Positions 2,956 through 34,512 of a stretch of 34,639 nucleotides of DNA are shown in pieces (within the stretch, counting starts at the first letter, position 1; each line of letters begins with the position of its first letter). A model generated the notes under the pieces. That model did not search any database. It worked only from the letters and a program-made list of their open reading frames with translations, and had not been told where the DNA came from. The translations under genes and the position numbers were made by a program. This stretch comes from Dehalococcoidia bacterium (GTDB lineage Bacteria > Chloroflexota > Dehalococcoidia > GIF9 > AB-539-J10), in contig JAUVYD010000001.1 of NCBI GenBank assembly GCA_030603265.1, positions 1-34,639 on the forward strand, given 5' to 3'.

Positions 2956-3838
2956 TCTGTGTCCCTCCGTGCGACAGGAGCTGCCTGGCGTTTTCACCTG
3001 CTATGAGTTTCCTGGTGGCAGACCCCAGCTCTGCTTTGTCCATTTCCTGGAGGGCCCGCTTCTGACTTACCAGAGGGAAGTCCGACCCGAAAAGGATATG
3101 GTCGGAGCCTGCTATCCGGTCCACCACGGAGAAGATGTCGGGGCTGTACAGGTACTGTGTGGCGGCGGTGTCGAAGTACACGTTGGAGAGCGTCTCTCGC
3201 ACCTCTGGCATCAGGCTGTAGAAGGGAAGCCCACCACCCCAGTGGGCGCATACGAGGACCGCCTGCGGGAACTCTGCCGCGAACCTGTACGGCTGCTCGG
3301 GCGTGACAGTGCCCTTGCCCGCGTACGCATGCCCTACTGGTTCGGATACGTGAGTCAGTACTATCATCTGCCGGGCCACGGCAATCTCGACAATGGGCGA
3401 GAGCAGTGGACTGTCGGCCAGCGAGAAGCCCTGGATGTCGGGGCGCAACTCGCCAATGCCCCTTGCCCCTGACGCGGCACACCGCTGTAGTTCTTCGACT
3501 GCCTTCTCGGGTGATGCCGGCTGGAGTGCGCAGAAAGGGATCAGCCGATCGGAGTGAAGGCTGGCTGCCTCGAGCAGGTAGTCATTCGTGCGCACGCACA
3601 TCTCATGACTGGTCCAGCCGATGTTCAGTACTACGGAGACATCGACGGATGCTTCGTCCATGCTGGCAAGCAGTTCTTCTGCCGTGGCCAGCCTTGCCTT
3701 CGGGTTGGTGTAGAGCGCCGCGAAGCAGGGGTCTACGCTTGCGTAGTGCTCGCGCTCTCTGCGTACCCAGTCAGGCATTATGTGAGTGTGGAAATCGATG
3801 ACCCTGGGTTCTCGCACTCCTGCTCTTTCATGCGACAT
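2939..3838 (-). CDS. Metal-dependent amidohydrolase-fold hydrolase (amidohydrolase_2/ACMSD-like TIM barrel)
   Basis: N-terminal VIDFHTHIMPD metal-binding motif, internal HVSEP..CAHWGGG and a C-terminal FGSDFP motif. The ATG at 3838 is preceded by GAGGGG at 8 nt. Confidence 0.75.
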   Translation of the reverse strand: MSHERAGVREPRVIDFHTHIMPDWVRREREHYASVDPCFAALYTNPKARLATAEELLASMDEASVDVSVVLNIGWTSHEMCVRTNDYLLEAASLHSDRLIPFCALQPASPEKAVEELQRCAASGARGIGELRPDIQGFSLADSPLLSPIVEIAVARQMIVLTHVSEPVGHAYAGKGTVTPEQPYRFAAEFPQAVLVCAHWGGGLPFYSLMPEVRETLSNVYFDTAATQYLYSPDIFSVVDRIAGSDHILFGSDFPLVSQKRALQEMDKAELGSATRKLIAGENARQLLSHGGTQIERAR

Positions 3839-4334
3839 GCAGCCTACCCCTCAATTCCTTCAGATTCACCACATCCTCTCGATTGTATTCCAGAAGCGTT
3901 TGGAGTGCCTGCTCATCACCATGGCGAACGTAGCGCCACCAGAGAACGACTGCCTGTCGGCCGTTCACCCCTTGAAGCGTCCTCTCGATGCCCAGTTGCT
4001 GCTCCACTGCTTTGAGCCCCCCGTAGAGATTCTGTCGCCAGCAGTCGTACATCAGGTCTCTATGCAGCATCAATGACTGCAGTGCGACCTGCAGCTTGGA
4101 TTCGATGAAAACGAGGTCGAATCGGGCGCCATTGTATGTGTACAGTGTGCCGACGCCGTCGAGCGCTCGTAGCAGGCTCTCGCTGCTGATCTCGCGCCCC
4201 ACAAGCTGGATGAGCTCGAATCCGTGTGGAACCACCTGGCGGTAGATGCCCACGACAGTGATGCGATTCGCGAACGGGCTGAGACCGGTCGTCTCGATGT
4301 CCAGATAGGCTTCCAATTTCGATGCGGCGTGCAA
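3828..4334 (-). CDS. RNase H-like / DEDDy 3'-5' exonuclease domain protein (YprB-like)
   Basis: Exo motifs DIETTG (ExoI), YNGARFD (ExoII) and YNREDV (ExoIII, Y-x3-D). TTG start at 4332-4334 follows GAAGGGAA. The gene overlaps the downstream amidohydrolase start by 11 nt. Confidence 0.7.
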   Translation of the reverse strand: MHAASKLEAYLDIETTGLSPFANRITVVGIYRQVVPHGFELIQLVGREISSESLLRALDGVGTLYTYNGARFDLVFIESKLQVALQSLMLHRDLMYDCWRQNLYGGLKAVEQQLGIERTLQGVNGRQAVVLWWRYVRHGDEQALQTLLEYNREDVVNLKELRGRLHVA

Positions 4335-4362
4335 GGCGTCGGGTTCCCTTCGGACGATGCGC

Positions 4363-4896
4363 TCAGGCCTCCCTGCCCTGAAGCGTAGACATCAGCCGGC
4401 CAAGAACGAGAGCTCCGATGGCAACAAGCCCTGTGATGGACAGGGTGAACACCCATCCGAAGCAGGCAATCATGACCGGAAGGAGAAAGGGCTTTATGGC
4501 CCGACCGAACAGGAACACTGATATCTGCCCGACCCCTCCACCGTGACTCCGAACTGTCCCGAGCAAAGGGTACCATGCATAGGCGGGGCCCACGGACAGC
4601 ACTCCTGCCAGTAGTGATAGAAGTGAGCCTTTCAGACCCGAGTCCTTCCCGACAAGCAAGCTTATGTCGTGCGGTTTCAGAAACAGATTGGTGAGCACAA
4701 GTGCCACGAACACGAGGGACAGAGGCACCGCCAGTTTTCTGAACACAGAGGCGCTGAATGCTAGAGCCTGCAGGCCGGTCTCGGGAGAGAAGCCCAGGAC
4801 CATGGCGTAGACCGCCACGACGATGCCGAGGAAGATGAGCCCTCCCCGTCCACTCGAGCGGCGTGCGCCGCCTTGCGGCGCCTCGGACTTCGTCAC
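4363..4896 (-). CDS. Integral membrane permease, second half of a split two-component permease (ArsP/DUF318-like)
   Basis: Polytopic hydrophobic protein. GTG start forms a GTGA overlap with the stop of the upstream membrane protein. The pair resembles split 'predicted permease' pairs. Confidence 0.55.
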   Translation of the reverse strand: MTKSEAPQGGARRSSGRGGLIFLGIVVAVYAMVLGFSPETGLQALAFSASVFRKLAVPLSLVFVALVLTNLFLKPHDISLLVGKDSGLKGSLLSLLAGVLSVGPAYAWYPLLGTVRSHGGGVGQISVFLFGRAIKPFLLPVMIACFGWVFTLSITGLVAIGALVLGRLMSTLQGREA

Positions 4897-5405
4897 AGCG
4901 TTCCTCCGGAGAGAGCCACGAACATTGCAGTCAGCAACGCGATTGGGACTGAAAGGAGGAACGAGAGCGAATTGCGCAGAACAGCGAACCGGGTTCCGAG
5001 CGTCAGTGCCTCAGCCGGCAGTTGGGCGATTCCCACTGTGACCCAGCTGATGATGAAGGCGGCGACGGCGAAGACGCTCACGCCATCGGCGAGCAGCTGC
5101 TCGGAGATGACGTAGCTGTTGACAGGGTTGCCTGCCAGAATGCTTCCTATTCCTGCACCCGTGAGGGAATCGAGCAAAGGGTCACCTGAGAACAACGTCC
5201 CAAGCACGGAGGATGGGATTGCCGTGTGGAACAGTCCAATCAAGAGAGCGACGCCGCCGAGGAGGGGGAGCATAGAACGGAACTGAAATGCTGCCTTACG
5301 GGCAGCGCGAATCACCTCAGGGCGACCTGGCATGCCCGACCGGGTGACCTGTTTTCCTGCTCTCTCTTGCGTGCTCACGTTGTCTTCGCCAACTGATGCT
5401 CTCAA
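4893..5405 (-). CDS. Integral membrane permease, first half of a split two-component permease (ArsP/DUF318-like)
   Basis: Hydrophobic segments (MLPLLGGVALLIGLF.., ..GSILAGNPVNSYVISEQLLADGVSVFAVAAFIISWVTVG..). The start is uncertain: TTG 5405, or an internal Met further downstream. Confidence 0.55.
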   Translation of the reverse strand: MRASVGEDNVSTQERAGKQVTRSGMPGRPEVIRAARKAAFQFRSMLPLLGGVALLIGLFHTAIPSSVLGTLFSGDPLLDSLTGAGIGSILAGNPVNSYVISEQLLADGVSVFAVAAFIISWVTVGIAQLPAEALTLGTRFAVLRNSLSFLLSVPIALLTAMFVALSGGTL

Positions 5406-9598: not shown

Positions 9599-10333
9599 GT
9601 GGATACACTGGTAACGTCGAACAACCTTCTGTTCCTTGCCTTCGTGCTGGCGGACCTGGGTCTCGCAGTGCTTGTATTCAGGTTCTTTGGCAAGGAGGGC
9701 TTGTACGTCCTCGTTGTCGCGTCCGTGATTGTGGCCAACATTCAGGTAACCAAGACGGTCGTGCTTTTCGGCCTCACCGCAACGCTCGGCAACGTCCTGT
9801 ACGGGAGCACGTTCTTCGCCACCGACGTCCTCAGTGAGGTGTACGGCAAACGGGAGGCTCGACGAAGTGTCTGGCTCGGCTTTGTTGCCATGGGACTGGT
9901 TGTTGTCTGGATGCAGTTCGGCCTTGGATTCGTGCCGGGACCCGAGGACCTGGCGCATGACTCACTGGCAACGGTTTTCGGACTGATGCCACGTGTGGCG
10001 GCCGGAAGTCTGGTCGCGTATCTCGTGGCCCAGCATCACGATATCCTGGCCTTCCATTTCTGGAAGGCCAGGACTCGGGGTCGCTTCCTCTGGCTGCGCA
10101 ATTGCGCCTCCACCATGGTGTCTCAGGCCATTGACTCAGCGCTGTTCTGTTTCATCGCGCTGTGGGGTCTGTACGACACTGGCACATGGCTGGAGATACT
10201 CGCAACAACGTACATACTGAAGTGGGTGGTTGCCTTGCTGGACACCCCGTTTATCTACCTGGCGGTTCGGCTTCACCCGCCTGGGCGGCCCGAGCCGTCC
10301 GGAGATGGTGCATTTCCGAAGGAGGTGGCATGA
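9599..10333 (+). CDS. yhhQ: Queuosine-precursor transporter (YhhQ/VUT family, DUF165)
   Basis: Six-TM protein with the family-typical ..LGNVLYGSTFFATDVLSEVYGKREARR.. and ..MVSQAIDSALFCFIA.. segments. It lies immediately downstream of tgt. GTG start. Confidence 0.78.
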   Translation: MDTLVTSNNLLFLAFVLADLGLAVLVFRFFGKEGLYVLVVASVIVANIQVTKTVVLFGLTATLGNVLYGSTFFATDVLSEVYGKREARRSVWLGFVAMGLVVVWMQFGLGFVPGPEDLAHDSLATVFGLMPRVAAGSLVAYLVAQHHDILAFHFWKARTRGRFLWLRNCASTMVSQAIDSALFCFIALWGLYDTGTWLEILATTYILKWVVALLDTPFIYLAVRLHPPGRPEPSGDGAFPKEVA

Positions 10334-11898
10334 GAATCTGCACTGTTCAGGAGATGAGAGAGCTTGATAGACGTGCGGTTGAGGAGTTCGGCCTTTCTGA
10401 GGACATCCTCATGGAGAACGCGGGCCAGGCGGTGTACGAGGTCGCGAAGGCGGAATTCGGCACGGAGGGAAGGCGCTTCGTTGTGCTCTGTGGTGGAGGC
10501 AACAACGGCGGCGACGGACTGGTCGTTGCACGGAAGTTGCACTCGGTGGGTGCCGAAGTCAGGGTCTATCTATTGGCCGACGAGGACTCGCTTCACGGGG
10601 CGGCGCGCAGAAATCTGGAGGCCGCGATGCGCGCGGGCATTCCTCTGCAGCGACTTCGCACAGTCGAGGACCTCTATCTGGGCAGGTCGGGAGATGTTCT
10701 CATTGATGCCATCTTCGGGACGGGGCTCTCGCGAAGCCCCGAGGGCCTGCACAGGGAAGTGATTGAACGCGTCAATGCGTTCAACCAGCCGATTCTGAGC
10801 GTGGACATTCCGTCCGGAGTCAATGGAGACACGGGTGCGGTGCCGGACATCGCAGTGCGGGCGACGTGTACGGTTACCTTTGGCGTGCCGAAAAGGGGAA
10901 ACCTGCTGCAACCCGGGCGGGAACTGTCGGGAAGGCTATACGTGTCGCACATCTCGTTCCCGCCGTCACTCCACTGTGCCGACAGCCAGGTTGTCACGAA
11001 TCGTCTCAGCTCCCTGTCTCCCAGGCAGGCTAAGTGCCACAAGGGCGACTTCGGTGACGTCCTGTTCGTCGCTGGTGCACGGGCCTACCTGGGTGCTCCG
11101 CTCTTCGCCTCGATGTCATTCCTGAAGGCTGGCGGAGGATACGCGCGACTCGCTACGCCTGTGTCAATCGCCCCTTTGCTGGCGTCCCGGGCGAGCGAGG
11201 TGGTCATGGTTCCTCTTCAAGAGACGGCCGATGGAAGTATTGCCCTCTCGAACCTCGATGAATTGTGTGCCCTCGCAGACAACGTCGACATGGTCGTTGT
11301 CGGCCCGGGCGTATCCCTCAACGGGGAAACACAGGAGCTTGTCAGAGGGCTTGTCTCTCGCGTCACGAAGCCCATCCTTGTTGATGGTGACGGCCTCACT
11401 GCCATAGCATCTGATGGGGAGATGGTCCGGCGGCGCGAGGCCCCCGTGGTGCTCACGCCCCACGCCGGCGAGATGTCTCGACTGCTCGGCGTCTCCGTAG
11501 CAGCGGTGGCGCAGGACAGAATCGCGGCGGTACAGGATGCCTCCCGCAGGCTGAATGCAGTGGTCCTGCTGAAGGGCTCGAGCTCTCTTGTCGCTGAGCC
11601 GGATGGCCCCGTGTCAGTCAATCTCAGCGGGAATCCGGGCATGGCAACCGCCGGCAGCGGGGATGTGCTCGCCGGGACGATTGCGGCGCTGCACGGACTG
11701 GGGCTAGGCCTCCGAGAGGCCGCAGAAGTCGGCGCATTCATACATGGCCTGGCGGGTGACCTCGCGGCTGAGGCAAAGGGGCAGGATGGTGTTGTCGCCG
11801 GTGACATCATGGAGCACCTGCCGCGCGCGATGCGACTCTACCGGGAGAGATTCCGTGAGCTGGAACGAAACTTCTGTGGGAGACTGGTCGTTATATAG
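10330..11898 (+). CDS. nnr: Bifunctional NAD(P)H-hydrate repair enzyme Nnr (epimerase + ADP-dependent dehydratase; YjeF)
   Basis: N-terminal YjeF_N domain (VLCGGGNNGGDGLVVAR..DAIFGTGL). C-terminal carbohydrate-kinase-like dehydratase domain (KGDFG..TPHAGE..GNPGMATAGSGDVLAG). The ATG at 10330 follows GGAGGTG and forms an ATGA overlap with the yhhQ stop. Confidence 0.9.
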   Translation: MRICTVQEMRELDRRAVEEFGLSEDILMENAGQAVYEVAKAEFGTEGRRFVVLCGGGNNGGDGLVVARKLHSVGAEVRVYLLADEDSLHGAARRNLEAAMRAGIPLQRLRTVEDLYLGRSGDVLIDAIFGTGLSRSPEGLHREVIERVNAFNQPILSVDIPSGVNGDTGAVPDIAVRATCTVTFGVPKRGNLLQPGRELSGRLYVSHISFPPSLHCADSQVVTNRLSSLSPRQAKCHKGDFGDVLFVAGARAYLGAPLFASMSFLKAGGGYARLATPVSIAPLLASRASEVVMVPLQETADGSIALSNLDELCALADNVDMVVVGPGVSLNGETQELVRGLVSRVTKPILVDGDGLTAIASDGEMVRRREAPVVLTPHAGEMSRLLGVSVAAVAQDRIAAVQDASRRLNAVVLLKGSSSLVAEPDGPVSVNLSGNPGMATAGSGDVLAGTIAALHGLGLGLREAAEVGAFIHGLAGDLAAEAKGQDGVVAGDIMEHLPRAMRLYRERFRELERNFCGRLVVI

Positions 11899-12190: not shown

Positions 12191-12219
12191 TTGACATTCG
12201 TGAAGGAGGGAACTAGAAT
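12191..12219 (+). promoter_or_regulatory. Near-consensus sigma70-type promoter abutting the tubulin-like gene start
   Basis: TTGACA (12191-12196), a 17-nt spacer, then TAGAAT (12214-12219). The ATG at 12226 begins 7 nt after the -10. Confidence 0.55.
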
Positions 12220-12225
12220 AACGCC

Positions 12226-13398
12226 ATGAAGCTGCTGGTAATAGGACTTGGACAGTGTGGCGGGCGGATTGCTGACAGATTCGCTCGCTTGAACAAGAGA
12301 GGACATGCTCTCCGTGGGATGGACACCCTCGCCGGAGTTTTCGCAGTCAACACGGATGTTGCGGATCTCAGCGGACTGCGCACAATCAGACCTGACTACA
12401 AGCACCGCATACTCATCGGTGCGCAACGTACGAACGGCCATGGCGTGGGAAAGATCAGCGAACTGGGTGCCGAGATAGCGAACGAAGACGTCGACAAGAT
12501 AATTGACGCGATTCGTACGGCCGAAGGATTCTACGAGACTGACGCGTTCCTGCTGTGCGCCGGGGCTGCGGGTGGTACAGGGTCTGGCGCGATAGGGGTG
12601 CTGACCAAGCATCTGAAGGAGCGGTATATCGGGAAGCCTGTCTATGACGTGGTGGTCCTGCCGTTCCGCCAGGAGGAGACCACTGAGACCAGGACCATCT
12701 ACAACACGGCAACGTGCTTGAAGTCAACGTACCTGGTCGCTGACGCCGTCTTCCTGATTGACAATCAGCGTTACGTGAAGAAGGATTCCCCCGCCGAGAA
12801 CAACCTGAACACGATCAATGCGAAAGTCGCGGAGCCGTTCTATAACATGCTGTGCGCGGGCGAGGAGACCAAGAGCCGCTTCGTTGGCTCCAAGACACTC
12901 GATGCCGGAGACATCATCCAGACTCTCACCGGATGGACGGTCATTGGAGGTGGCATGTCGAGGCTGGAGCGGCGACTGCCGTTCTGTGGGCCGAAGCGCG
13001 ACTTCCGTGACAAGATGATTGAAACCAGCCGGGCCTCGCATGCGATGGATCAAGCCATAAGCGAGCTGTCAATGACGATTGACCCGAGTGATGTGGGAAG
13101 GGCTCTCTATCTCCTCACGGCCCCTGCCAAGGAGATGAGTATGGACATTCTCAAGCAGCTTGGAGACAACCTCAAGAGCCTTGCGCCAAACTCCCTCATC
13201 CGGAGTGGTGACTACCCGCGTGATAGTCGCCAGGTTGATGTCACGCTCATCATGTCAGAGATTGGCAGCATTCGTAAGATAACTGACTACTTCACCAAGG
13301 CGATTGATCTTATCTCGGTGATGAAGGCGAAACGCGGGCTTGGCTATCAGACGAGAAGGCTCGAGGAGTCCTTCGATGAGATCCCAGTTCTGCTGTGA
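12226..13398 (+). CDS. Tubulin/FtsZ-superfamily GTPase, CetZ-like (390 aa)
   Basis: T1 loop GLGQCGG (aa 7-13, nt 12244-12264). Tubulin signature GGTGSG (aa 116-121, nt 12571-12588). LIDN (aa 177-180). T7-type loop TLDAGDIIQTL (aa 224-234). The overall N-terminal layout (MKLxxIGxGQxGG...NGHGVGxxxELGAEIAxEDVD...DAFLxxxGxxGGTGSG) matches my memory of archaeal CetZ. An in-frame TAG at 12214 fixes ATG 12226 as the first possible start. Confidence 0.85.
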   Translation: MKLLVIGLGQCGGRIADRFARLNKRGHALRGMDTLAGVFAVNTDVADLSGLRTIRPDYKHRILIGAQRTNGHGVGKISELGAEIANEDVDKIIDAIRTAEGFYETDAFLLCAGAAGGTGSGAIGVLTKHLKERYIGKPVYDVVVLPFRQEETTETRTIYNTATCLKSTYLVADAVFLIDNQRYVKKDSPAENNLNTINAKVAEPFYNMLCAGEETKSRFVGSKTLDAGDIIQTLTGWTVIGGGMSRLERRLPFCGPKRDFRDKMIETSRASHAMDQAISELSMTIDPSDVGRALYLLTAPAKEMSMDILKQLGDNLKSLAPNSLIRSGDYPRDSRQVDVTLIMSEIGSIRKITDYFTKAIDLISVMKAKRGLGYQTRRLEESFDEIPVLL

Positions 13399-13433: not shown

Positions 13434-13470
13434 AGAGAGGCCCCTGGCCGGTAGAGCCAGGGGCCTCTCT
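13434..13470. terminator. Intrinsic terminator hairpin between the convergent tubulin-like gene and the hendecad-repeat gene
   Basis: Perfect 15-bp stem AGAGAGGCCCCTGGC / GCCAGGGGCCTCTCT with a 7-nt loop, followed on the + strand by GTTTTCTTG. The tail on the minus strand is weaker in U. Confidence 0.6.
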
Positions 13471-13497
13471 GTTTTCTTGAGCCCTTCGGGTTTCTGT

Positions 13498-14076
13498 CTA
13501 CCTGCGGGCCTTCGTGAACACTGTCCAGGTGCGCGTCATGGCCTCTCCGTGTGCCTGGCGGGCCTGCTTCTCGGTTTCGTCTCTGTCTTTCAGCGACTGC
13601 GCGACGACGTCGTCATACGCTTTCTTAGCCTGGGCAACGCTGTCGTCATATGCTTTGCGGACCTGCACGAGGCTCTCGTCGAAGGCGTGTTGAGCCTGAG
13701 CCGTGCCGTCTTCCATCACTTTCCTTGCCTGTGCGAGGGAGCTCTCGTAGTGGCCCCGGGCCCGTCCTGCGGCGTCCATTGAGCTCCGCCGAGCCTTGTC
13801 GAGAGCGTCCGTGTAGCTCTTCTCGGCTTTCTGCTCCTGGTCCTTGTAGGCGTTCTCCAGTTGGCGCTCCGCCTGGACGTACGCAACATAGGCTGCTACA
13901 GCACGTTGTTGGGTTTCGTCCAGGGCATCAACCTTCATTGCCTCTTCCGTGGCGGGAGGCATCTTCGCGTCATCGGGCTGCGTCTTGGCTGCTGCCGCTA
14001 TCGGAGGCCCCTTTGCGTCATCAGTCTGCGCCTTGGGTTGTGTCGCTTTCTCGCGCGCTTCGTCTACGTTGGCCAT
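13498..14076 (-). CDS. Hendecad (11-residue) repeat alpha-helical protein, 192 aa, function unknown
   Basis: The ATG at 14076 follows AAGGAGGG at 5 nt. About eleven tandem 11-residue units occupy aa 66-187 (consensus roughly AYDDSVAQAKK). The N-terminus carries a duplicated K(A/T)Q(T/P)DDAK(G/M)PP motif. No TM segment and no signal peptide. Confidence 0.7.
   Translation of the reverse strand: MANVDEAREKATQPKAQTDDAKGPPIAAAAKTQPDDAKMPPATEEAMKVDALDETQQRAVAAYVAYVQAERQLENAYKDQEQKAEKSYTDALDKARRSSMDAAGRARGHYESSLAQARKVMEDGTAQAQHAFDESLVQVRKAYDDSVAQAKKAYDDVVAQSLKDRDETEKQARQAHGEAMTRTWTVFTKARR
13507..13884 (-). repeat. 33-nt (11-codon) periodic tandem repeat region inside the 192-aa gene
   Basis: The aromatic/hydrophobic register recurs every 11 residues: Y66, Y77, Y88, (S99), Y110, M121, F132, Y143, Y154, (R165), (H176), F187. 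Confidence 0.75.
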
Positions 14077-14175
14077 CTATGCCCTCCTTTGCAGTTGTCC
14101 TTCATCGATGTCTCTTGTGTGAGAGTGTATCACGTACTGCTGGCCGAATCCCCTGATGTGGAGGCAGCGCCGGCA

Positions 14176-15738
14176 TCATTCATCTTCCTGGCTGTCATCG
14201 GACCTCTCGAACGGCCTGTCCTTCTCTGATGCGTACATCTTCGAGAGGAACTCGAGCCGCGACCGCATGTCGCGCTTTGCGGCGTGCGGCGCTGGCTTCA
14301 GTCTCGACTCGTCCGGCTCGATTCGGCTGAGGGCCTCTTCGAATAGCTTGGAGGAGGAGGGTTCGGATGGTTCTTGGGCCTCCTGGTTGACCTTCTCCGC
14401 GCCCGCCGCGGTTTCGTCAAAGACGCGAACGGCTGCGCGAGCAGCCTTGCGAGCGGTCCTGGTGGTCTCCTCGGCCTTCTTGATGGCCTCCTGGAGAACC
14501 TTTGCTGACGCGACTACAGTGTCGCGCGCTGCGGCGATTGATGCCTCGGTGGCTTCTCTCGCGACGCGTCTCGACTCCTCTGCCGCCCGCAGTGATTCGG
14601 TGCCGTTTTCCTCGGAGCGACGTACGGCCTCTGCTGCCAGCCTCCGCGCCTCCTCCTCCGCCTCGGCAGCGAGTTTCCCGATCTCTTCAGCCCGGGCTGC
14701 CGATTCCTCGGACGCCTTCAGGGCGTCTTCCGCCAGCCTCATGGCTGCCGACGTAACCTCTTCGCTGCGTCTGACGGCCTCGCGAGACGAACGCTCCGCT
14801 TCCTCGGCCTTCCCCATGGCCTCCTGCGATGCACGAGACGCGGACTCGACCGCCTCCTTGCTTGCCCTTACCGATGTTTCGATGCGGGCGACCACTTCGT
14901 GTGACGACTTGATCTGCTGGCCGGCCTCACGCTGGCTTAGCTTCCCTGCTTCTTCCGCTCGCCGAAGGGCGGTTTCAAACGCACGGCTGGACTGCGCGGA
15001 GGACGCATTCGAGGCAGCAATTGCCTCTTCGGCCCGGGCAAGCGCCTCTTCGAACGCCGCCGAAGACAGAGCGGCTGAATCGGAGGCCGACTGGAAGACT
15101 CGCTCCGCCCTTGCGACTGCCTTCTCGGATGCCTTCTCAGCGTCTCGTGACGCCTTCTCGGACGAGCGGGCGACTCGCTCGAGTGTGATGCGGGCCTCAT
15201 AAGAGGTTTTGACGGCTTCCTCAGAGGCCCGTGTGGCCTTCTGTCCCTCTTCTTCGGCGCGCGCCACCGCTTGCTGGGCGGCACGCCGGGCTTCTTCCGC
15301 CTTCTCCTGCGCACCCTGCGCAGCCTTCTCGACCCTGCCCAGCAATTTCTGAGAGGAAGAGACTGACTCCTCTACGGAGTCCATCGTCTGGTTCGCGAGT
15401 TGCTCAAGCAGGGCGACTGCCTCTTCAAATGAGCGAGCGCTCTCCTCGGCGGCCTCAGTGGACGACTGAACGGACTGCTCGGCTGCAGCGATGGCCTCCT
15501 GAGCCCTCGAGTTGGTCTCATTCACTGACTGGCTGACGGCGGACGCCTTCTTTGCAGCGTCCTCGGCCATCTGTCGCGCCTCTTGTGCCGTGACCATCGC
15601 CTCGCGGCCGATGTTCTCGATTCTGGTGACGGCCTGTCCCGAGGCCTTGCGGGACTGCTCCGCAGCCTGGCGCGCAGCCAGGTTCATCTGTTCGGCTCTC
15701 GCTACCGCCTCTTCGAAGGATGGTGACTCGCTGTCCAT
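14176..15738 (-). CDS. Ala/Glu/Ser/Arg-rich low-complexity alpha-helical repeat protein, 520 aa, function unknown
   Basis: Long ORF with its own near-consensus promoter and a GGAAGG SD. The motif F-E-(E/T)-A-(V/L)-x-(R/L)-x-E recurs at F8, F104, F229, F254 and F466. The tail is acidic (..SDDSQEDE). The antisense 348-aa ORF is a compositional shadow. Confidence 0.7.
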   Translation of the reverse strand: MDSESPSFEEAVARAEQMNLAARQAAEQSRKASGQAVTRIENIGREAMVTAQEARQMAEDAAKKASAVSQSVNETNSRAQEAIAAAEQSVQSSTEAAEESARSFEEAVALLEQLANQTMDSVEESVSSSQKLLGRVEKAAQGAQEKAEEARRAAQQAVARAEEEGQKATRASEEAVKTSYEARITLERVARSSEKASRDAEKASEKAVARAERVFQSASDSAALSSAAFEEALARAEEAIAASNASSAQSSRAFETALRRAEEAGKLSQREAGQQIKSSHEVVARIETSVRASKEAVESASRASQEAMGKAEEAERSSREAVRRSEEVTSAAMRLAEDALKASEESAARAEEIGKLAAEAEEEARRLAAEAVRRSEENGTESLRAAEESRRVAREATEASIAAARDTVVASAKVLQEAIKKAEETTRTARKAARAAVRVFDETAAGAEKVNQEAQEPSEPSSSKLFEEALSRIEPDESRLKPAPHAAKRDMRSRLEFLSKMYASEKDRPFERSDDSQEDE

Positions 15739-15802: not shown

Positions 15803-15831
15803 ATTGTAGTTACACTCCTCGGTATTTTCAA
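15803..15831 (-). promoter_or_regulatory. Near-consensus sigma70-type promoter for the 520-aa repeat-protein gene
   Basis: The minus strand reads TTGAAA-17 nt-TACAAT. The -35 overlaps the stop codon of the nitrilase-family gene. A 9-bp hairpin (15761-15769 / 15783-15791) lies in the predicted 5' UTR. Confidence 0.55.
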
Positions 15832-24117: not shown

Positions 24118-25596
24118 TTATAGCCCCGCGCGTGGGCAATTGTAAAGCAGACGGGGTGTCCTGCTAGCGGCCGAAGCGCGGTGCCGACCGACCAGCGCGA
24201 TCGCCCGGGCGGCGCGCGCCATTGTGGGAAACACAGGCACGCCTGCCTGCAGCAGTTTCGACTCGGCCTCGATGCGCTCGATCTCCGTCGACCCCGGAGG
24301 CAGCACGAGCACGAATGGCTTCCTGCACTCCTGCCGCAGCCTCGCGAGAAACGCATTGATGTCTGCCGTCTCATGAGCGCTGAGGAAACTGAGCATGATA
24401 TCCATGTCTTCCTGGATGACGATAATCTCAATGGCTGGCTCTTCCGCGACGAGGCGTATGGCCTGGAAGAGGGTGTCGAGTCCGCGGAACTGGGCAGGGC
24501 TCACGTCAACAGGGTTCCTCAGGATGCTGCCCACTTCGCCTAGCAGGGCCTTCAGGCTCTCTTTTGTACTCGGCGACAGCTCGGGGACGGCGAGGGCGTT
24601 GTCGTTGCAGGCATCGCTGCCCGATACGGAGATTCCGCCGCCTCCGTCGGCGAGGCCGCCGATAATGGCGACCTTCTCTGCCCGGAATTCGCCAAGTTGC
24701 TGCAGCAGGAGCAGGCAGTCGCTGAGCTCTTCGATACTGCGGGCCTCTATTGCCCCTGCCTGGCGCAACATCGCGCTCCACACAGGCGCCGAACTGGCGA
24801 GCGACCCTGTGTGTGAGAGCGCGGCAGCCGCGCCGGCGTCGGTCCTGCCACCTTTCCACACGACGGTTGGCTTTACCTGGCAGACGGCTCGAAGTGTGCG
24901 AAAGAGGCGTTGTCCGTCTCTCGTCCCCTCCATGTATGCCCCGACAGCGCTGGTCTTGCTGTCTGCGGCGAAGTACTCGAGGAAATCACTTGTATCGAGA
25001 TCGATGCTGTTTCCAACGCTGATACCTTTGCTGAACTTGATGTGACGAGCGATTCCGATCTCAACCAGCTTCGCCGCAATCCCTCCACTCTGGGAGATGA
25101 AGCCGATGCTGCCCGGAGAGCCGACCTTCCCCAGCAAAGAGGGGCCAAGTGGGATACGCGCCTCCGGACAGTAGCTCCCGATGCAGTTGGGGCCTACAAC
25201 GCGGAGGCCGGTTTCGCGCGCCCTGCGGAGCATCCTCTCCTCGAGTTGTTTCCCTTCCCGGGAGCCTGTCTCGCTGAACCCCGCCGTGAAGAACTGGACG
25301 ACTCGAGCCTTCTTCCGGATGCACTCCTCAATCAGGTCCAACACGGAGTTGGAGGGCACGGAGGCTATCACATAGTCAATATCACTCTCGATGGACGAGA
25401 GGCTCCGCGCGATTTCGAGTCCCGCCACAGTGCCACCGCGGGCGCTCACCGGATAGATAGTGCCCGTGTACCCGGCTGTCTTGAGACCGATGACCCACTT
25501 GGCCCCGGACTTTCTCTCATCTGATGAGGCTCCCACGACGGCTATTGAGCGAGGATAGAAGACGTGGTCGAGCTCGCGGAGTCTGTCTTCGAACAC
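24118..25596 (-). CDS. ADP-forming acyl/acetyl-CoA synthetase alpha-subunit-like protein (CoA-binding + succinyl-CoA-synthetase-like domains)
   Basis: FYPRSIAVVGAS CoA-binding N-terminus. Phosphohistidine loop LSHTGSLAS. GTG start at 25594-25596 lies 6 nt after AAGGAGG. There is no ATP-grasp (beta) domain. Confidence 0.75.
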   Translation of the reverse strand: MFEDRLRELDHVFYPRSIAVVGASSDERKSGAKWVIGLKTAGYTGTIYPVSARGGTVAGLEIARSLSSIESDIDYVIASVPSNSVLDLIEECIRKKARVVQFFTAGFSETGSREGKQLEERMLRRARETGLRVVGPNCIGSYCPEARIPLGPSLLGKVGSPGSIGFISQSGGIAAKLVEIGIARHIKFSKGISVGNSIDLDTSDFLEYFAADSKTSAVGAYMEGTRDGQRLFRTLRAVCQVKPTVVWKGGRTDAGAAAALSHTGSLASSAPVWSAMLRQAGAIEARSIEELSDCLLLLQQLGEFRAEKVAIIGGLADGGGGISVSGSDACNDNALAVPELSPSTKESLKALLGEVGSILRNPVDVSPAQFRGLDTLFQAIRLVAEEPAIEIIVIQEDMDIMLSFLSAHETADINAFLARLRQECRKPFVLVLPPGSTEIERIEAESKLLQAGVPVFPTMARAARAIALVGRHRASAASRTPRLLYNCPRAGL

Positions 25597-25761
25597 GCGA
25601 CACCTCCTTGCATAAGGGGGACCAGACGGGGATAGCGCGCAAGTGTACCAGACCCCGACCTCTGTGATTGCGGCTGCATCCACATTCGTCATGTTGAACT
25701 ACCACCCGCTGCCAGAGTAAAGTTGGCTCTTTGTTGGCATATCTGGAGGAAACTGAGAGTC

Positions 25762-27159
25762 ATGTCTGACACACGACAACAGATGAAGCCGTTCGTGGAG
25801 CCGGAATCGGTGGCCGCGATAGGCGTTTCACGTCGCACCGGTCCTGGTGCCTTCAATCTCCTTGACAACATCCTGAGCTACGGCTACGAGGGACGGCTCT
25901 ACCCCGTGAACCCGAACGCCACTGAGATTCTCGGCGTGAGGACCTATCCCTCTGTGTCCAGCCTTCCGGAGGTCGTGGACCTTGCACTCATCAGCCTGCC
26001 CCGGGACATCGTTGCGGGGGTTGTCAAGGACTGTGTCGCAAACGGAATCAAGGCCATCGTCATCATCACACAGGGATTCGCTGATGCGGACGATGAAGAG
26101 GGCAATCGACTGCAGCGTGAGCTGCTTGAGCTTGTCCGTGGGACGGGCACGTGTATCCTTGGGCCGAATACGTTCGGGACCGCGAACGCACAACTGAAGT
26201 TCAGCTCGTCGTATATCCACATCCCGATGGATGACAATGGCGTTGGCACCATCTCCCAGACCGGGGGGACCTTCCTTGGATTGAATGACATAAGGCTTGT
26301 CGGCAAGGCCATCGATGTCGGGGACTCGTGTGATATCGACATCGTCGACTGCCTGGAATACTTCGAGCATGATGAGGCGACGAGAGTTATTGCCCTTCAT
26401 GTCGAGGGCATGCCGGACGCGAAGCGGTTCCTTGAGGTGGCGCGGAGAGTCGCACTTCGAAAACCGGTGGTGGCACTCAAGACCGGCAGGTCCGGGCGTT
26501 CCGCTCAGGCTGTTCTCTCCCACACGGGAGCGCTTGCCGGCAGAGATGAACTCTGGGACGTGGCCCTTCGTGAGGCAGGCGTCGTCCGAGTGGACGATAT
26601 CGAGGAACTGGCGGATACCCTGCGGGCGTTCCTGACGCTTTCAGCCCCAAGCGGAAACGGAATCGGTGTCATGACGCCTACGGGAGGATTTGGCATCATT
26701 GCGGCAGACGCGTGTGGCAAGTTCGATATGGACCTTGTTGAGTTCACCGATAGTACGATGGCCGGCCTGCGGGCGCTGTCTCCGGAATGGCTTGCGGTGG
26801 GTAACCCAGTGGACTATTTCCCCGGCGTGTCCATTATGGGCCGCCCGCGCGACGAGATGGAGTTGGCCGCGATGCGGCTCATCATGGCGGATGAGAGAGT
26901 CAACGCTGCCATGGGCGTCATAGGGGCCTTCAGCCCGGAGCTTGGCGATGAGCTTGCGCTACTGGCGCGGGAGATGGCACGGGATTTTCCCGACAAACCG
27001 CTCGTCTACTTTCTCTACGGGCCCCACTTCACAGAGGTCCGGAAGAGACTGGAGAGCACGGGGACGACGCTTGGCTTCCCCAGTCCAGAAAGGGCTGTGC
27101 GGGCCCTGATGCACTTGAAGCGCCGCGCGGACTACCTTGCGCGGCAACATGCCCGGTGA
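25762..27159 (+). CDS. ADP-forming acyl/acetyl-CoA synthetase alpha-subunit-like protein (paralog of 24118-25596)
   Basis: PESVAAIGVS CoA-binding N-terminus. Phosphohistidine loop LSHTGALAG. Same domain order as the divergent neighbour. The ATG at 25762 follows GGAGGA. Confidence 0.75.
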   Translation: MSDTRQQMKPFVEPESVAAIGVSRRTGPGAFNLLDNILSYGYEGRLYPVNPNATEILGVRTYPSVSSLPEVVDLALISLPRDIVAGVVKDCVANGIKAIVIITQGFADADDEEGNRLQRELLELVRGTGTCILGPNTFGTANAQLKFSSSYIHIPMDDNGVGTISQTGGTFLGLNDIRLVGKAIDVGDSCDIDIVDCLEYFEHDEATRVIALHVEGMPDAKRFLEVARRVALRKPVVALKTGRSGRSAQAVLSHTGALAGRDELWDVALREAGVVRVDDIEELADTLRAFLTLSAPSGNGIGVMTPTGGFGIIAADACGKFDMDLVEFTDSTMAGLRALSPEWLAVGNPVDYFPGVSIMGRPRDEMELAAMRLIMADERVNAAMGVIGAFSPELGDELALLAREMARDFPDKPLVYFLYGPHFTEVRKRLESTGTTLGFPSPERAVRALMHLKRRADYLARQHAR

Positions 27160-32541: not shown

Positions 32542-33061
32542 CAATCTCGATGGTGTAGATGTCAGGCAGGTGGCGGAACTTGTTGTCGAAGTCCAGCCCG
32601 TAGCCGACGACGAACTTGTCCGGAATTGTGAATCCGAGGTAGGCAATCTCAATTGGCGTCTCTCTGCGGCTGGGCTTGTCCGCGAGGGCGCAGATGGCAA
32701 CGGAGCGGGCCCCTGTGTCCTTCGCGTGGCGCAGGACATAGTTGGCGGTGTAGCCACTGTCGATTATGTCCTCCACGATGAGGACGTCCTTGTCCTTCAC
32801 CTGTATTGTCATGTCCTGCAGCAATCTGATTCGGCGGGAGCTTTCGCTGCCACTGTCGTAGCTCGAAACGGTCACGAAATCCACCTCGAGAGGAATCTCG
32901 ATCTGCCGCACCAGGTCCGCCATGAAGATGAAAGCGCCCTTGAGTATTCCGACGGCGACCAACTGCCTCCCTCTGTAGTCCTCTGAGATCTGGCCGGCGA
33001 GCCGGGAGATGGCTCGCTCGATGTCGTGGCGTGGGATGAGCAGACTAAGATGGTCCTTCAT
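32525..33061 (-). CDS. hpt: Hypoxanthine(-guanine) phosphoribosyltransferase
   Basis: GILKGAFIFMADL, PRPP motif VLIVEDIIDSGYT, and FVVGYGLDFDNKFRHLP. ATGA overlap with the upstream gene stop at 33058-33061. Confidence 0.9.
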   Translation of the reverse strand: MKDHLSLLIPRHDIERAISRLAGQISEDYRGRQLVAVGILKGAFIFMADLVRQIEIPLEVDFVTVSSYDSGSESSRRIRLLQDMTIQVKDKDVLIVEDIIDSGYTANYVLRHAKDTGARSVAICALADKPSRRETPIEIAYLGFTIPDKFVVGYGLDFDNKFRHLPDIYTIEIDDEHA

Positions 33062-34512
33062 GCAGTTAGCCTCGCCTGGCTGTGTCCGCCCCAATCCTGT
33101 CTCAGTTCCCCGATGAATGGGAGGTTTCGGTACTCGCCCTTGTAGTCGAGGCCGTAGCCCACAACGAATATATCCGGAATCTCGAATCCTACGTAGTTGA
33201 GCTTGACGTTTGCCAGTCTCCTGGCCTTGCGGTCAAGCAGAGAGCACACGCGAAGACTCGCCGGCTTGTGCGCGGCCAGATGAGCAAGCACGTAGTTCAG
33301 TGTCATGCCGGTGTCCACGATGTCCTCAACCATGAGAACATGTTGTCCCCCGATGGGAGAGTCGAGATCCCGCGTGATTTTCACGACCTCGCCGTCGCCG
33401 CTGTAGTGTGAGATGTCCATGTAGTCGACCCTCACGGGGATCGAGATGTACTGCATCAGATCGGACATGAAGCACATCATTCCCTTGAGCACGCCGATGA
33501 CGACGATTCTCTCTCCCGCGTAGTCGCGCGATATCTTGCGTGCGATGGCGCGCACTCTGCGCTGTATCTGTGTGTGGCTGTAGAGCACCCTCCCGACTCC
33601 CTCGACCTTCGCCTCTCCCATCGAGCCGTAGCCATACTTCGCCAGCAGCTTCATGAAGTCCTTCTTTGTCAGCAGCCGGATGTTAATATCAGGGTACTGC
33701 TCCCGTAGTCGCCTGACCTTGCGGTTCTTGAGAGTAATCAGGTCCTGCTTCATCGTCGTGAGTTCGACGTACATGTCAAGTTCGGGCAGGTAGAAGTCAG
33801 GCGTGAACATCTGAGAGATTTTGGCCCCGTTCCAGGCGAGGGGGAAGGAGCGTGGCTCGTACAGCCACTCAATCTGATAGAAATCGAGCAGGCCGGCGAA
33901 TTCTGCTTCGCTCTCGTGCGCGAACTCGGTTGGCTTCAAGGGATTCACTGCTATCCGGGGTGGGGTTGAGACCTCGGTGGCCTTCGCCCGTGACTTGTCG
34001 ATACGGTCTCTGAACTGGGCAAGCTGTGCCCTGTCGAGCAGCACGGCGCACAAGTTGGCGGACGCCTTCAGGAAGTCCTTCTCCACCTCCGTGAGTTCCC
34101 TGGACTCCTTTGAGTAGATTCGCAGCTCTCCTATCGTATCTTCTCCAAGGATGACCGGAATCCCGGCGATGAAGAGGACGTTCTGGGATTTGGCCACTTC
34201 CGGGTGTTGCACCCTCTCGTCGGTTGGCGCGTGGGTGACGACCACGATGTTTCCGGCCAGCACCTCGGGCAGACTTTTTCGTGCATCGAGCGGACCCTTT
34301 CTGATGTAGAGGTCGCTTAGCCCATAGGCGCCGACGGTCGTGAGGTATTCCTTCTTCGAATCCAGGAGGAGAATCCTGCAGCCATTCATGTCTGTCGCCT
34401 TGGCGACAGTCCTTGCTATGGCATTGTAGGTCCGACGGAAAGTGAGCCCGGAGTTCGCTATGACTGCAATCTGCTGCAGTCCTGTGTAGTGCCGTCCCCT
34501 GGATGTAGTCAC
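33058..34512 (-). CDS. Three-domain fusion: N-terminal GAF domain + central restriction-endonuclease-like (PD-(D/E)xK-like) module + C-terminal HPRT domain
   Basis: aa 15-160 are GAF-like (..CRILLLD..LTTVGAYG..GIPVILGEDTIGELRIY..). aa 195-295 contain E200/E202..PD239F..VE250LT..K255. aa 305-470 are a full HPRT domain (GVLKGMMCFMSDL, VLMVEDIVDTGMT, FVVGYGLDYKGEYRNLP). GTG start lies 7 nt after GAGGAGGA. Confidence 0.8.
   Translation of the reverse strand: MTTSRGRHYTGLQQIAVIANSGLTFRRTYNAIARTVAKATDMNGCRILLLDSKKEYLTTVGAYGLSDLYIRKGPLDARKSLPEVLAGNIVVVTHAPTDERVQHPEVAKSQNVLFIAGIPVILGEDTIGELRIYSKESRELTEVEKDFLKASANLCAVLLDRAQLAQFRDRIDKSRAKATEVSTPPRIAVNPLKPTEFAHESEAEFAGLLDFYQIEWLYEPRSFPLAWNGAKISQMFTPDFYLPELDMYVELTTMKQDLITLKNRKVRRLREQYPDINIRLLTKKDFMKLLAKYGYGSMGEAKVEGVGRVLYSHTQIQRRVRAIARKISRDYAGERIVVIGVLKGMMCFMSDLMQYISIPVRVDYMDISHYSGDGEVVKITRDLDSPIGGQHVLMVEDIVDTGMTLNYVLAHLAAHKPASLRVCSLLDRKARRLANVKLNYVGFEIPDIFVVGYGLDYKGEYRNLPFIGELRQDWGGHSQARLTA

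Follow-up and report, generated by a model that had tools for sequence, protein, structure and literature searches.

The window, the whole 34,639-nt stretch of Dehalococcoidia (Chloroflexota) DNA analysed here, harbours on its forward strand a gene (12226..13398) for a 390-aa tubulin/FtsZ-superfamily GTPase that is of CetZ type, being nearer in sequence and fold to CetZ than to FtsZ or tubulin. The family to which it belongs is vertically inherited and class-wide in the Dehalococcoidia, not a lone oddity, and the gene itself (subfamily A of the Dehalococcoidia clade) lies next to two genes for helical-repeat proteins, AE192 and AE520. Its sequence and setting lead us to think that the product probably binds GTP, self-polymerises and forms a module with AE192 and AE520, most likely as a membrane-proximal, non-division scaffold for cell shape or the envelope.

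Sequence and fold of the CetZ-like protein

The open reading frame begins with an ATG, 12 nt downstream of an in-frame stop codon, and its product comprises a Tubulin/FtsZ GTPase domain (PF00091; aa 3–183, 12232..12774) followed by a CetZ_C domain (PF21011; aa 193–360, 12802..13305), both encoded on the forward strand as are the motifs below. The first domain holds the T1 loop GLGQCGG (aa 7–13, nt 12244–12264), the T4 motif GGTGSG (aa 116–121, nt 12571–12588) and LIDN (aa 177–180, nt 12754–12765), and a GHGVG motif occupies aa 71–75; the second includes the T7 loop TLDAGDIIQTL (aa 224–234, nt 12895–12927). The initial annotation had listed T1, T4, LIDN and T7, all of which are confirmed, and aligning the protein with Haloferax volcanii CetZ1 (PDB 4b46) bears out, at each residue, the CetZ-like N-terminal pattern that it proposed. 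Residues of the four motifs are invariant among 26 aligned family members, D226 and D229 of T7 included. In independent HMMER and MAFFT alignments D229 falls opposite E218 of CetZ1, where the E218A mutation blocks function, and opposite D212 of E. coli FtsZ, so that to judge by these alignments Asp conservatively replaces Glu, just as it does in FtsZ. At the level of sequence, the catalytic motifs are intact.

Profile searches identify both domains well above threshold: PF00091 scores 114 bits against a cutoff of 33 (E 1.2e-32) and PF21011 44.2 bits against 21.6 (E 1.8e-11), the latter over profile positions 7–179 of 180, and the Pfam scan of the protein returned neither an FtsZ_C nor a tubulin_C domain. 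CetZ_C is likewise present in 240 of 240 homologs among the matches listed. The FtsZ equivalog of NCBIfam (TIGR00065) reaches only 62.9 bits against a cutoff of 295.2, with the N-terminal domain alone aligning. PDB sequence searches rank the three solved CetZ structures highest, namely CetZ1 (full-length match, E 6.5e-40), CetZ2 (PDB 4b45; 1e-24) and the CetZ-like protein of Methanosaeta (Methanothrix) thermophila (PDB 3zid; 9e-15), and FtsZ appears at 3e-12 or weaker. Gamma-tubulin (6e-9) and BtubB match the nucleotide-binding segment aa 83–186 only (E 6e-9 to 6e-7), while TubZ structures give weak matches at about 2e-5. The window protein itself has no exact entry on record, and a 99% identical locus (L001) from a metagenome-assembled genome (MAG) stood in for it. 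An AlphaFold model built on a 105-sequence alignment (pLDDT 91.3; an earlier model from 26 sequences, with pLDDT 55.9, was discarded) tells the same story in Foldseek, with CetZ1 the best match (E 3.2e-33, TM 0.93, rmsd 2.0 Å), CetZ2 and M. thermophila CetZ in ranks 2–3 and FtsZ structures from E 1e-24.

Side by side with archaeal CetZ1 and CetZ2, to which it is closest in sequence and fold, the protein shares the Tubulin GTPase plus CetZ_C architecture, a GGTGSG-type T4, an acidic T7 residue at the aligned position, a long helix that follows the second domain towards the C-terminus (aa 350–369 in the AlphaFold model) and a short linker ending in a short hydrophobic peptide; host cells without a murein wall are a further likeness. 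Identity is, however, about 28–33%, and loop sequences differ, CetZ1 and CetZ2 having GQAGG in T1 and LPGxDEG and DNDAxR in T5/H7 as opposed to GQCGG, LPFxxEE and DNQRY here; the long M-loop insertion of CetZ1 with its LLSRL tip is missing altogether. M. thermophila CetZ has the beta-tubulin-like GQCG T1, an LPFREE T5 and DNQ after the H6–H7 region in common with our protein, although as a whole it is far less similar (E 9e-15; TM 0.80, the third fold match). In a neighbour-joining (NJ) tree it falls not in the main bacterial clade but in a group with Bathyarchaeia and a single sequence from Chloroflexota.

Bacterial FtsZ shares the superfamily fold (TM 0.82–0.85), the T7 aspartate at the aligned position and a C-terminal DIPxF/L-L core (E. 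coli LDIPAFLRKQAD versus DEIPVLL), whereas the CetZ-like protein has tubulin-like T1 and T4 loops in place of GGGGGN and GGGTGTG, as well as a short linker, and its gene lies outside the mraZ-ftsZ-ftsA locus. Several sources label homologs 'cell division protein FtsZ', but the protein misses the TIGR00065 cutoff by more than 230 bits and a separate ftsZ, adjoining ftsA, is reported in Dehalococcoidales (PMC10608941). We reject an ordinary division FtsZ, in agreement with the initial annotation, which had also pointed to the lack of division and cell-wall (dcw) gene context. Tubulin proper, BtubAB and artubulin are rejected as well, there being no tubulin_C domain and weak matches over one segment. 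BtubA/B of Prosthecobacter, TubZ and PhuZ resemble our protein in being non-FtsZ members of the superfamily in bacteria, yet BtubA/B and TubZ are weak sequence matches (E 1e-5 to 6e-7), and all three are narrowly distributed or on mobile elements, unlike the chromosomal, class-wide Dehalococcoidia family.

The protein ends in a linker and C-terminal peptide of the form (F)xDIPxLL (13333..13395, forward strand), presumed to be a docking motif. In the AlphaFold model the linker at about aa 370–378 is flexible (pLDDT about 52) and leads into a short terminal helix (aa 379–383), after which comes the terminal EIPVLL (aa 385–390, nt 13378–13395). Residues I386, P387, L389 and L390 are invariant in the 26 family members, and the DIPxLL tail is invariant both in subfamily A and in a second paralog described below. 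The corresponding CetZ1 tail, LESLF, is needed for CetZ1 function.

Genomic context, distribution and phylogeny

A sigma-70-type promoter (TTGACA, 17-nt spacer, TAGAAT; 11 of 12 matches) precedes the gene at 12191..12219 on the forward strand, the scan having found two sites where 0.5 were expected. Orthologs L001–L039 keep both hexamers, −35 and −10, equally far from the start codon, while the spacer sequence diverges. With 6 nt between the end of the −10 hexamer and the ATG, the mRNA is predicted to be leaderless. The bacterial-type promoter of the initial annotation is thus borne out, but its Shine-Dalgarno site is not upheld for this gene, because the upstream GGAGG falls within the promoter spacer and shows no conservation. 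A terminator scan gave one weak site (13458–13471) against 3.7 expected by chance, which is not evidence, and tRNA and Rfam scans of the window had no matches.

The surroundings are bacterial, as had been claimed: the flanks encode NAD-dependent LigA, long-form HPF, a ComF-like protein, Tgt, Nnr, the TRAP components DctPQM, SecD and SecF. The GC content of the gene equals that of its flanks, and the same flanks recur in 13 independent assemblies. Among contigs representing one genome per species, at least 574 stretches match the family, the best 80 of them nearly all from Dehalococcoidia, and metagenomes add 80 further loci; dcw genes are absent both from the window and from all 80 loci, and there is no linkage to an ftsZ, ftsA or mraZ cluster. 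An assembly chimera is excluded because the 13 assemblies share the flanks and 80 loci carry the family. A recent archaeal insertion is rejected with it, given also the metagenome loci, the uniform GC and the conserved bacterial promoter, and identity within the bacterial clade as low as 30–40% argues for old residence. We accordingly assign a negligible probability to the gene being either an ordinary division ftsZ or the result of such a chimera or insertion.

In the NJ tree (100 bootstraps) the bacterial family forms its own clade with 86% support, comprising several paralog subfamilies, and by this analysis it stands apart from canonical CetZ1 and CetZ2. Relative to E. coli FtsZ, the one outgroup, this clade sits among CetZ and CetZ-like groups with backbone supports below 30%, and for that reason we claim neither nesting in, nor a sister relation to, archaeal CetZ. 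The deep branches with a taxon are a handful (Dehalococcoidia, Chloroflexota, Nitrososphaerales, Bathyarchaeia, Thermococci and Methanobacteriota).

Two linked helical-repeat genes and a second paralog

Downstream of the CetZ-like gene, and convergent with it, lie two genes on the reverse strand. AE192 (13498..14076) encodes 192 aa, rich in Ala, Asp, Lys and Gln and all-helical, with an 11-residue repeat, the conserved sequence LDExxQRAxxAYxAYxEAERQ and a C-terminal WxxF/YxK. AE520 (14176..15738) encodes 520 aa, rich in Ala, Glu, Ser and Arg, built of 25-residue helical repeats that vary in number, so that orthologs range from 393 to 782 aa; its N-terminus (FExAVARAExLSxAA) is conserved, as is RLxFLxxMY near the C-terminus, which precedes an acidic tail. 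A candidate promoter (TTGAAA, 17-nt spacer, TACAAT; 10 of 12 matches) at 15803..15831 on the reverse strand, about 65 nt upstream of the AE520 start, is possibly that of a putative AE520-AE192 operon. Both proteins lack transmembrane segments and recognised membrane-targeting sequences, and neither has a significant match in Pfam, NCBIfam, PDB sequence or PDB profile searches. Matches to designed helical bundles, Scy and an alanine-zipper lipoprotein were dismissed as sub-threshold noise, the Scy match scoring 16.6 bits against an NCBIfam cutoff of 1040. By analogy only, the partners resemble Scy, FilP and crescentin in being long, Ala/Glu-rich helical proteins built of repeats and free of enzymatic domains, but their repeats of 25 and 11 residues are not plain heptads and there is no significant homology.

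The linkage holds from both sides. Where downstream sequence is available, 57 of 58 subfamily-A genes are followed by AE192, AE520 or both. Conversely, a degenerate-pattern locus scan of metagenomes anchored on AE192 (a profile search gave 16 matches only, its word prefilter being swamped by low-complexity words) found a convergent CetZ-like gene within 400 nt in 46 of 53 loci and within about 4 kb in the other 7, with AE520 upstream of AE192 in 49 of 49. All other neighbours of the CetZ-like gene differ between lineages. This bidirectional linkage is tight and strong, although convergent transcription means that the partners are not co-operonic with the CetZ-like gene, and linkage is not proof of physical interaction. 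Nothing of the kind is named in a survey of archaeal cetZ neighbourhoods (PMC9856176), and the two partners set the Dehalococcoidia gene apart from archaeal CetZ. Because the CetZ-like gene has these conserved helical partners, a dedicated non-division cytoskeleton is suggested.

The same survey proposes that some archaeal CetZ proteins help to localise biosynthetic and surface complexes, and CetZ1 is described as also positioning the motility machinery. Such a scaffold might here position another machine (respiratory or reductive-dehalogenase complexes, pili or S-layer secretion) and leave cell shape alone; we think this unlikely, as genes for such machinery do not recur beside the CetZ-like gene and the conserved neighbours are the two helical-repeat genes only, plus housekeeping genes in the case of a second CetZ paralog. 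This paralog (B), with its catalytic motifs intact, often flanks the AE192-AE520 pair. Some genomes possess paralog B only, at a GAPDH-dnaX locus with no partner genes nearby. An alpha/beta-tubulin-like split between A and B was rejected because both keep every catalytic motif.

In many genomes paralog B lies directly upstream of dnaX-ybaB-recR, and the P0148 group, a deep branch of the same clade, occurs in regions rich in mobile elements; both observations would fit a TubZ- or PhuZ-like tubulin that segregates a chromosome or mobile element. The window copy, in contrast, has housekeeping genes around it in a conserved order; next to it neither a TubR-like gene nor repeats resembling a centromere were noted, and its C-terminal domain is CetZ_C by Pfam. 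Furthermore, the phage search gave 0 matches in 50,697 records, and the matches in 72,556 plasmids were confined to CetZ genes of haloarchaeal megaplasmids. For the window gene DNA segregation is largely refuted, and we consider it highly improbable.

A proposed shape scaffold and its significance

Returning to the non-division scaffold that we favour, we picture its working as follows. First, the CetZ-like protein would form dynamic protofilaments, turned over as D229 completes the GTPase site of the neighbouring subunit. Second, the filament would act as a module with AE192 and AE520, the gene pair being flanked in many genomes by an equally intact second CetZ paralog. Third, the DIPxLL peptide on its short linker would be the docking site of the filament, either on a membrane anchor or on the helical partners; FtsA or a SepF-like protein is a candidate anchor because the tail resembles the C-terminal peptide of FtsZ. 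Lastly, by analogy with CetZ1 in wall-less haloarchaea, the scaffold may set the shape or organise the envelope of peptidoglycan-less cells with an S-layer-like wall. Polymerisation, GTPase activity, localisation, the partner and tail interactions and the role in shape are all what we infer for this protein. A role in shape would suit the hosts: Dehalococcoidales are reported to have lost their peptidoglycan genes and to keep mraZ-mraW-ftsZ-ftsA elsewhere in the genome (PMC10608941).

Archaea without pseudomurein use two FtsZ paralogs, and the CetZ-like protein could in the same way be an accessory division protein, a second FtsZ-like polymer aiding FtsZ and FtsA in the constriction of wall-less cells. 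The likeness of DIPxLL to the FtsA-binding peptide of FtsZ, together with the retention of FtsA in Dehalococcoidales (PMC10608941), speaks for this, as does the joint fall of a tubulin-like protein and FtsZ in slowly dividing, barrel-shaped cells of Dehalococcoides mccartyi. In strain BTF08 of that species FtsZ is btf_0595, and the 'FtsZ/Tubulin GTPase' btf_0551 is encoded apart from it, which tells against our protein being the division FtsZ itself. For the shape scaffold, on the other hand, speaks the finding that the tubulin-like protein of D. mccartyi and a hypothetical protein encoded nearby abound in disc-shaped cells and are depleted in barrel-shaped co-culture cells. The genes btf_0551 and btf_0548 are candidate counterparts of the window genes. 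Because FtsZ dropped as well, the correlation with morphology cannot separate shape from division. Against a division role, the protein is nearest to CetZ in both sequence and fold, and CetZ1 and CetZ2 are described as shape and motility proteins; in addition, linkage to an ftsZ, ftsA or mraZ cluster was seen in 0 of 80 loci, and the helical partners are without counterpart among known divisome genes. We regard an accessory division role as the less probable reading, with perhaps one chance in several of being right.

The bare existence of the family is already published: Dehalococcoidia CetZ-like proteins receive one sentence in a 2023 phylogenomic paper (PMC9871819), and some homologs are already named "CetZ" in databases. 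New here are the AE192/AE520 module, the paralog structure and a testable mechanism. Reviews describe CetZ as archaea-specific (PMC9856176 and others). Our findings indicate otherwise: CetZ is a core, class-wide, multi-paralog family in a bacterial group. The available CetZ1 literature reports MinD-dependent localisation and names no direct binding partner; AE192 and AE520 are candidate CetZ interactors and, if this is true, would be the first CetZ-associated candidates in any organism.

The family also provides further data on how the tubulin superfamily evolved and on transfer between domains. More speculatively, and with the balance of our judgement leaning against so full a scenario, Dehalococcoidia may own a complete, hitherto undescribed cytoskeleton of one or two CetZ-type tubulins and two helical-repeat proteins that took over shape when peptidoglycan was lost, giving the disc shape, its origin being an ancient acquisition from archaea or a pre-CetZ relic shared by both domains. 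The Dehalococcoidia, organohalide respirers and their relatives, are environmentally and biotechnologically important, and Dehalococcoides cells are wall-less and disc-shaped; to our knowledge no shape-determining machinery is known for them. A CetZ-type filament with two linked structural partners would offer concrete genes for the cell shape of Dehalococcoides.

Sequence and fold of the CetZ-like protein

The CetZ-like gene (window 12226–13398, + strand) begins with an ATG, has an in-frame stop codon 12 nt upstream and encodes 390 aa. The initial annotation had placed its product in the tubulin/FtsZ superfamily on the strength of four motifs, all of which were found in place: GLGQCGG (aa 7–13), GGTGSG (aa 116–121), LIDN (aa 177–180) and the T7 motif TLDAGDIIQTL (aa 224–234). 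Pfam assigns aa 3–183 to the Tubulin/FtsZ GTPase domain (E 1.2e-32) and aa 193–360 to the CetZ-specific C-terminal domain (CetZ_C, PF21011; E 1.8e-11), with nearly the entire CetZ_C profile aligned. In two independent alignments Asp229 of T7 falls at the position of CetZ1 E218 and E. coli FtsZ D212, and it is unchanged throughout the family; CetZ1 E218A is the classic GTPase-dead, hyperstable mutant (bioRxiv 10.1101/2024.04.08.588506).

A PDB sequence search placed the three solved CetZ structures ahead of all other entries: H. volcanii CetZ1 (4b46; E 6.5e-40, full length), H. volcanii CetZ2 (4b45; E 1e-24) and M. thermophila CetZ (3zid; E 9e-15), followed by the best FtsZ (E 3e-12), gamma-tubulin (E 6e-9), BtubB (E 6e-7) and TubZ (E about 2e-5). 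AlphaFold gave a poor model from a shallow alignment (pLDDT 55.9) and a confident one from an alignment of 105 sequences (pLDDT 91.3, pTM 0.90). Foldseek searches of the PDB with this model ranked CetZ1 first (E 3.2e-33, TM 0.93 by target length, rmsd 2.0 Å), then CetZ2 (E 2e-28) and M. thermophila CetZ (E 3.6e-25), with dozens of FtsZ structures below them (from E 1e-24, TM 0.82–0.85). In the model the second domain leads into a long helix (aa 350–369), then into a low-confidence linker of ~10 residues and finally into a short terminal helix that bears the C-terminal peptide. Sequence, domains and fold all mark the protein as CetZ-type, with a polymerisation-dependent GTPase site predicted to be intact.

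That the gene might instead encode the canonical division FtsZ is refuted, as the initial annotation had anticipated, by this closeness to CetZ and by the NCBIfam FtsZ equivalog, against which the protein scores 62.9 bits (cutoff 295.2) with the N-terminal domain alone aligning. A separate FtsZ has also been reported: D. mccartyi, like every high-quality Dehalococcoidales or SAR202 genome examined by Wiegand et al. 2023 (PMC10608941), carries mraZ-mraW-ftsZ-ftsA side by side; according to the same authors, the peptidoglycan genes of the dcw cluster disappeared in the common ancestor of these groups. In D. mccartyi BTF08, FtsZ (btf_0595) is distinct from an ‘FtsZ/Tubulin GTPase’ (btf_0551), and the protein products of both genes were detected (Kruse et al. 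2021, PMC8163811).

As to expression, the proposed bacterial promoter stands; the mention of Shine–Dalgarno sites does not hold for this gene. A TTGACA-17-TAnAAT promoter (in the window, within 12191–12228) is conserved in loci L001–L039, the window's subclade, with a diverging spacer; the GGAGG lies within that spacer and is not conserved. Throughout this subclade the -10 hexamer ends 6–7 nt ahead of the start codon, so that a leaderless mRNA is predicted. The more distant Dehalococcoidaceae-type orthologs (L040 onward) instead have a leader that includes an AAGGT-type ribosome-binding site.

A conserved module with two helical-repeat proteins

All ORFs of 80 loci were clustered without prior bias, and only two families emerged as consistent companions of the CetZ-like gene, its remaining neighbours differing from lineage to lineage. 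In the window these are AE192 (13498–14076, - strand, 192 aa), immediately downstream, and next to it AE520 (14176–15738, - strand, 520 aa), both on the strand opposite to the CetZ-like gene. One or both of these families lie downstream of 57 of the 58 genes of subfamily A (the window's paralog type) for which 2.5 kb or more of sequence is available on that side, the sole exception being L070. At 18 loci a second paralog, B, follows beyond AE520 and divergent from it, giving the order CetZ-A (+), AE192 (-), AE520 (-), CetZ-B (+); this four-gene block sits within a housekeeping region, preceded by LigA, Pth, Eno and GAPDH and followed by DnaX, YbaB, RecR and RecO.

For the reciprocal test we turned to an independent set of metagenome contigs, anchored on AE192. 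A convergent CetZ-like gene was found within 400 nt of AE192 at 46 of the 53 loci with room, and within about 4 kb at the other seven; AE520 lay upstream of AE192 on the same strand in 49 of 49. This conserved CetZ-AE192-AE520 neighbourhood is the main new result of our analysis, and a search of open-access full text with a few term combinations found no description of it. At L126, L149, L152, L156 and L157 the best CetZ-like match lies ~1.3 kb past AE192 rather than adjoining it; the gap implies that an additional ~1.3-kb gene, possibly one more divergent CetZ copy, stands between them.

No significant Pfam, NCBIfam or PDB match was obtained for either partner, by sequence or by profile. AE520 is rich in Ala, Glu, Ser and Arg, has a net charge of -22 and no hydrophobic segment, and consists of repeats 25 residues long, as autocorrelation peaks at 25, 50 and 75 show; its hydrophobic period is 3.58. 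Its orthologs span 393–782 aa owing to varying repeat number, and share an N-terminal FExAVARAExLSxAA and a C-terminal RLxFLxxMY with an acidic tail. AE192 has 11-residue repeats (peaks at 11, 22, 33 and 44), a conserved LDExxQRAxxAYxAYxEAERQ block and a C-terminal WxxF/YxK motif. Since amphipathic helices with hendecad repeats are typical of proteins lying on membrane surfaces, AE192 is a candidate membrane adaptor. A 319-aa Dehalococcoidales protein (P0445) combines PAS domains with an AE192-like region, hinting that the AE192 module could couple to a sensor domain. Two Ser/Ala/Arg-rich ORFs antisense to the partners (14156–15202, +, 348 aa, opposite AE520; 13650–14156, +, 168 aa, opposite AE192) were rejected as genes, being mirror ORFs of a low-complexity, GC-rich coding strand; the minus-strand ORF is the longer and conserved one at 58/58 loci.

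Bacterial residence and paralogs

The surroundings of the gene are bacterial, as first described, and include Ogt, long-form HPF, a ComF-like protein, LigT, NAD-dependent LigA, Tgt, a Vut_1 transporter, Nnr, a nitrilase-family hydrolase, TRAP DctPQM, SecF, SecD, the CCA-adding enzyme and PdxA; GC content is uniform between gene and flanks. The initial annotation had raised the possibility of an assembly joining archaeal and bacterial DNA. Such a chimera is ruled out by L001, a Dehalococcoidia MAG with a 99% identical CetZ-like protein and ten neighbours at 91–97% in the same order, and by 13 independent assemblies that share the window's flanks.

Elsewhere in the window, Vut_1 (9599–10333) overlaps the mechanically called Nnr ORF (10162–11898, +; YjeF_N plus carbohydrate kinase) by 172 nt. 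In Nnr the Pfam match starts at aa 81, and just past the Vut_1 stop there is an internal Met (MRICTVQEM, ~aa 57), so this Met is probably the true start. Two divergent, paralogous CoA-ligase genes of the ADP-forming acyl-CoA synthetase type (CoA_binding plus Succ_CoA_lig) occupy 24118–27159, and 33058–34512 (-) encodes an unusual fusion of a GAF domain to a phosphoribosyltransferase domain. In 3828–5405 (-), an RNase-H-like exonuclease ORF with a DIETTG motif precedes a pair of neighbouring small membrane-protein ORFs (177 and 170 aa); no ORF tested in this stretch had a Pfam match.

Scanning one genome per GTDB species returned at least 574 matching stretches; of the best 80, almost all have a Dehalococcoidia, Dehalococcoidales or Dehalococcoidaceae label. 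Homologs number in the thousands in the large protein databases; each of the 240 listed has both PF21011 and PF00091, every taxon-bearing name among them is Dehalococcoidia or Chloroflexota, and some bear the JGI label ‘tubulin-like protein CetZ’. Three loci (L062, L070 and L072) come from records labelled Deltaproteobacteria or Syntrophaceae MAGs; these are probably mislabelled or contaminated bins, as the LigA-Pth-Eno-GAPDH-CetZ-DnaX synteny of L062 is that of Dehalococcoidales loci.

A neighbour-joining tree (100 sequences, 366 columns, 100 bootstraps) was built from family members including both paralogs of two-copy loci, 67 full-length cluster representatives (found by exhaustively searching 1.84 billion of them), CetZ1, CetZ2 and a partial M. 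thermophila CetZ, with E. coli FtsZ as outgroup. A single clade of 53 sequences (86% support) unites all Dehalococcoidia sequences with their nearest representatives; it contains subfamilies A, B (B1, 99%) and C, the Dehalococcoidia-labelled P0134/P0136 group and the deep P0148 group (94%). Backbone supports for placing this clade as nested within or sister to archaeal CetZ are below 30%. Identity inside the clade falls to 30–40%, which argues for long residence in the Dehalococcoidia lineage and not recent transfer. Named sequences outside it are archaeal (Haloferax, Nitrososphaerales, Bathyarchaeia, Thermococci, Methanobacteriota) with the exception of P0183 (Chloroflexota, 378 aa, ~29% identity), which groups with a Bathyarchaeia sequence and M. 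thermophila CetZ. P0183 would represent a second, independent CetZ-like lineage in Chloroflexota, in agreement with a ‘paraphyletic’ remark in the literature (PMC9871819).

Paralogs A and B share their C-terminal peptide and have lost none of the GTP-binding and T7 residues; with both catalytically intact in sequence, a catalytic/non-catalytic pair of the alpha/beta-tubulin kind was rejected. At L062 (8764–11176) two CetZ-like genes, subfamily C then B, stand in direct tandem between GAPDH and dnaX, an arrangement seen once only and with no helical partner genes nearby. Proteins of the P0148 group (L082 2544–4839; L083 and L084 10001–12305) have 418 aa with Tubulin and CetZ_C domains. Their genes, several copies in one sample, are surrounded by resolvases, IS66 and IS605/TnpB elements and a group II intron RT, and always followed by an uncharacterised gene of 324–327 aa with which they may form a CetZ-like pair on a mobile element.

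The C-terminal peptide and possible roles

An invariant (F)xDIPxLL closes the proteins of this family, in paralog B as KDIPSLL; E. coli FtsZ ends in LDIPAFLRKQAD, the peptide that binds FtsA and ZipA. Similar [DE][IL]PxL[LF] tails occur on many archaeal CetZ-like representatives, and the CetZ1 tail (LESLF) is needed for rod formation (bioRxiv 10.1101/2024.04.08.588506). The tail is thus a feature shared by FtsZ and CetZ and the likeliest, though putative, docking site; its ligands could be FtsA, which these genomes retain, SepF-like proteins or the AE partners. An accessory role in division is possible, given this FtsZ-like tail and the co-variation of the D. mccartyi ‘FtsZ/Tubulin GTPase’, a candidate ortholog, with FtsZ (PMC8163811), but neither family assignment nor gene linkage favours it. 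A tubulin for plasmid or phage segregation is rejected: no phage matched, and the matches among 72,556 plasmids were haloarchaeal megaplasmid CetZ genes only.

A CetZ review and recent primary papers term CetZ archaea-specific. The CetZ_C HMM of Santana-Molina et al. matches Dehalococcoidia CetZ-like proteins at about 1e-10, and their paper does not discuss the distribution, paralogs, partners or function of these proteins (PMC9871819). A survey of archaeal cetZ neighbourhoods mentions purine, F420, sugar-epimerase and pilus genes but no helical-repeat partners (PMC9856176).

The initial annotation was correct in both observation and interpretation, and the gene is no artefact but belongs to a large bacterial CetZ-type family that had been noted earlier but not studied. 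Every function given here for the protein and its module is inferred. With its tight three- or four-gene arrangement, its set of paralogs, its FtsZ-like tail and its link to life without a wall, this family offers a worthwhile and testable lead.
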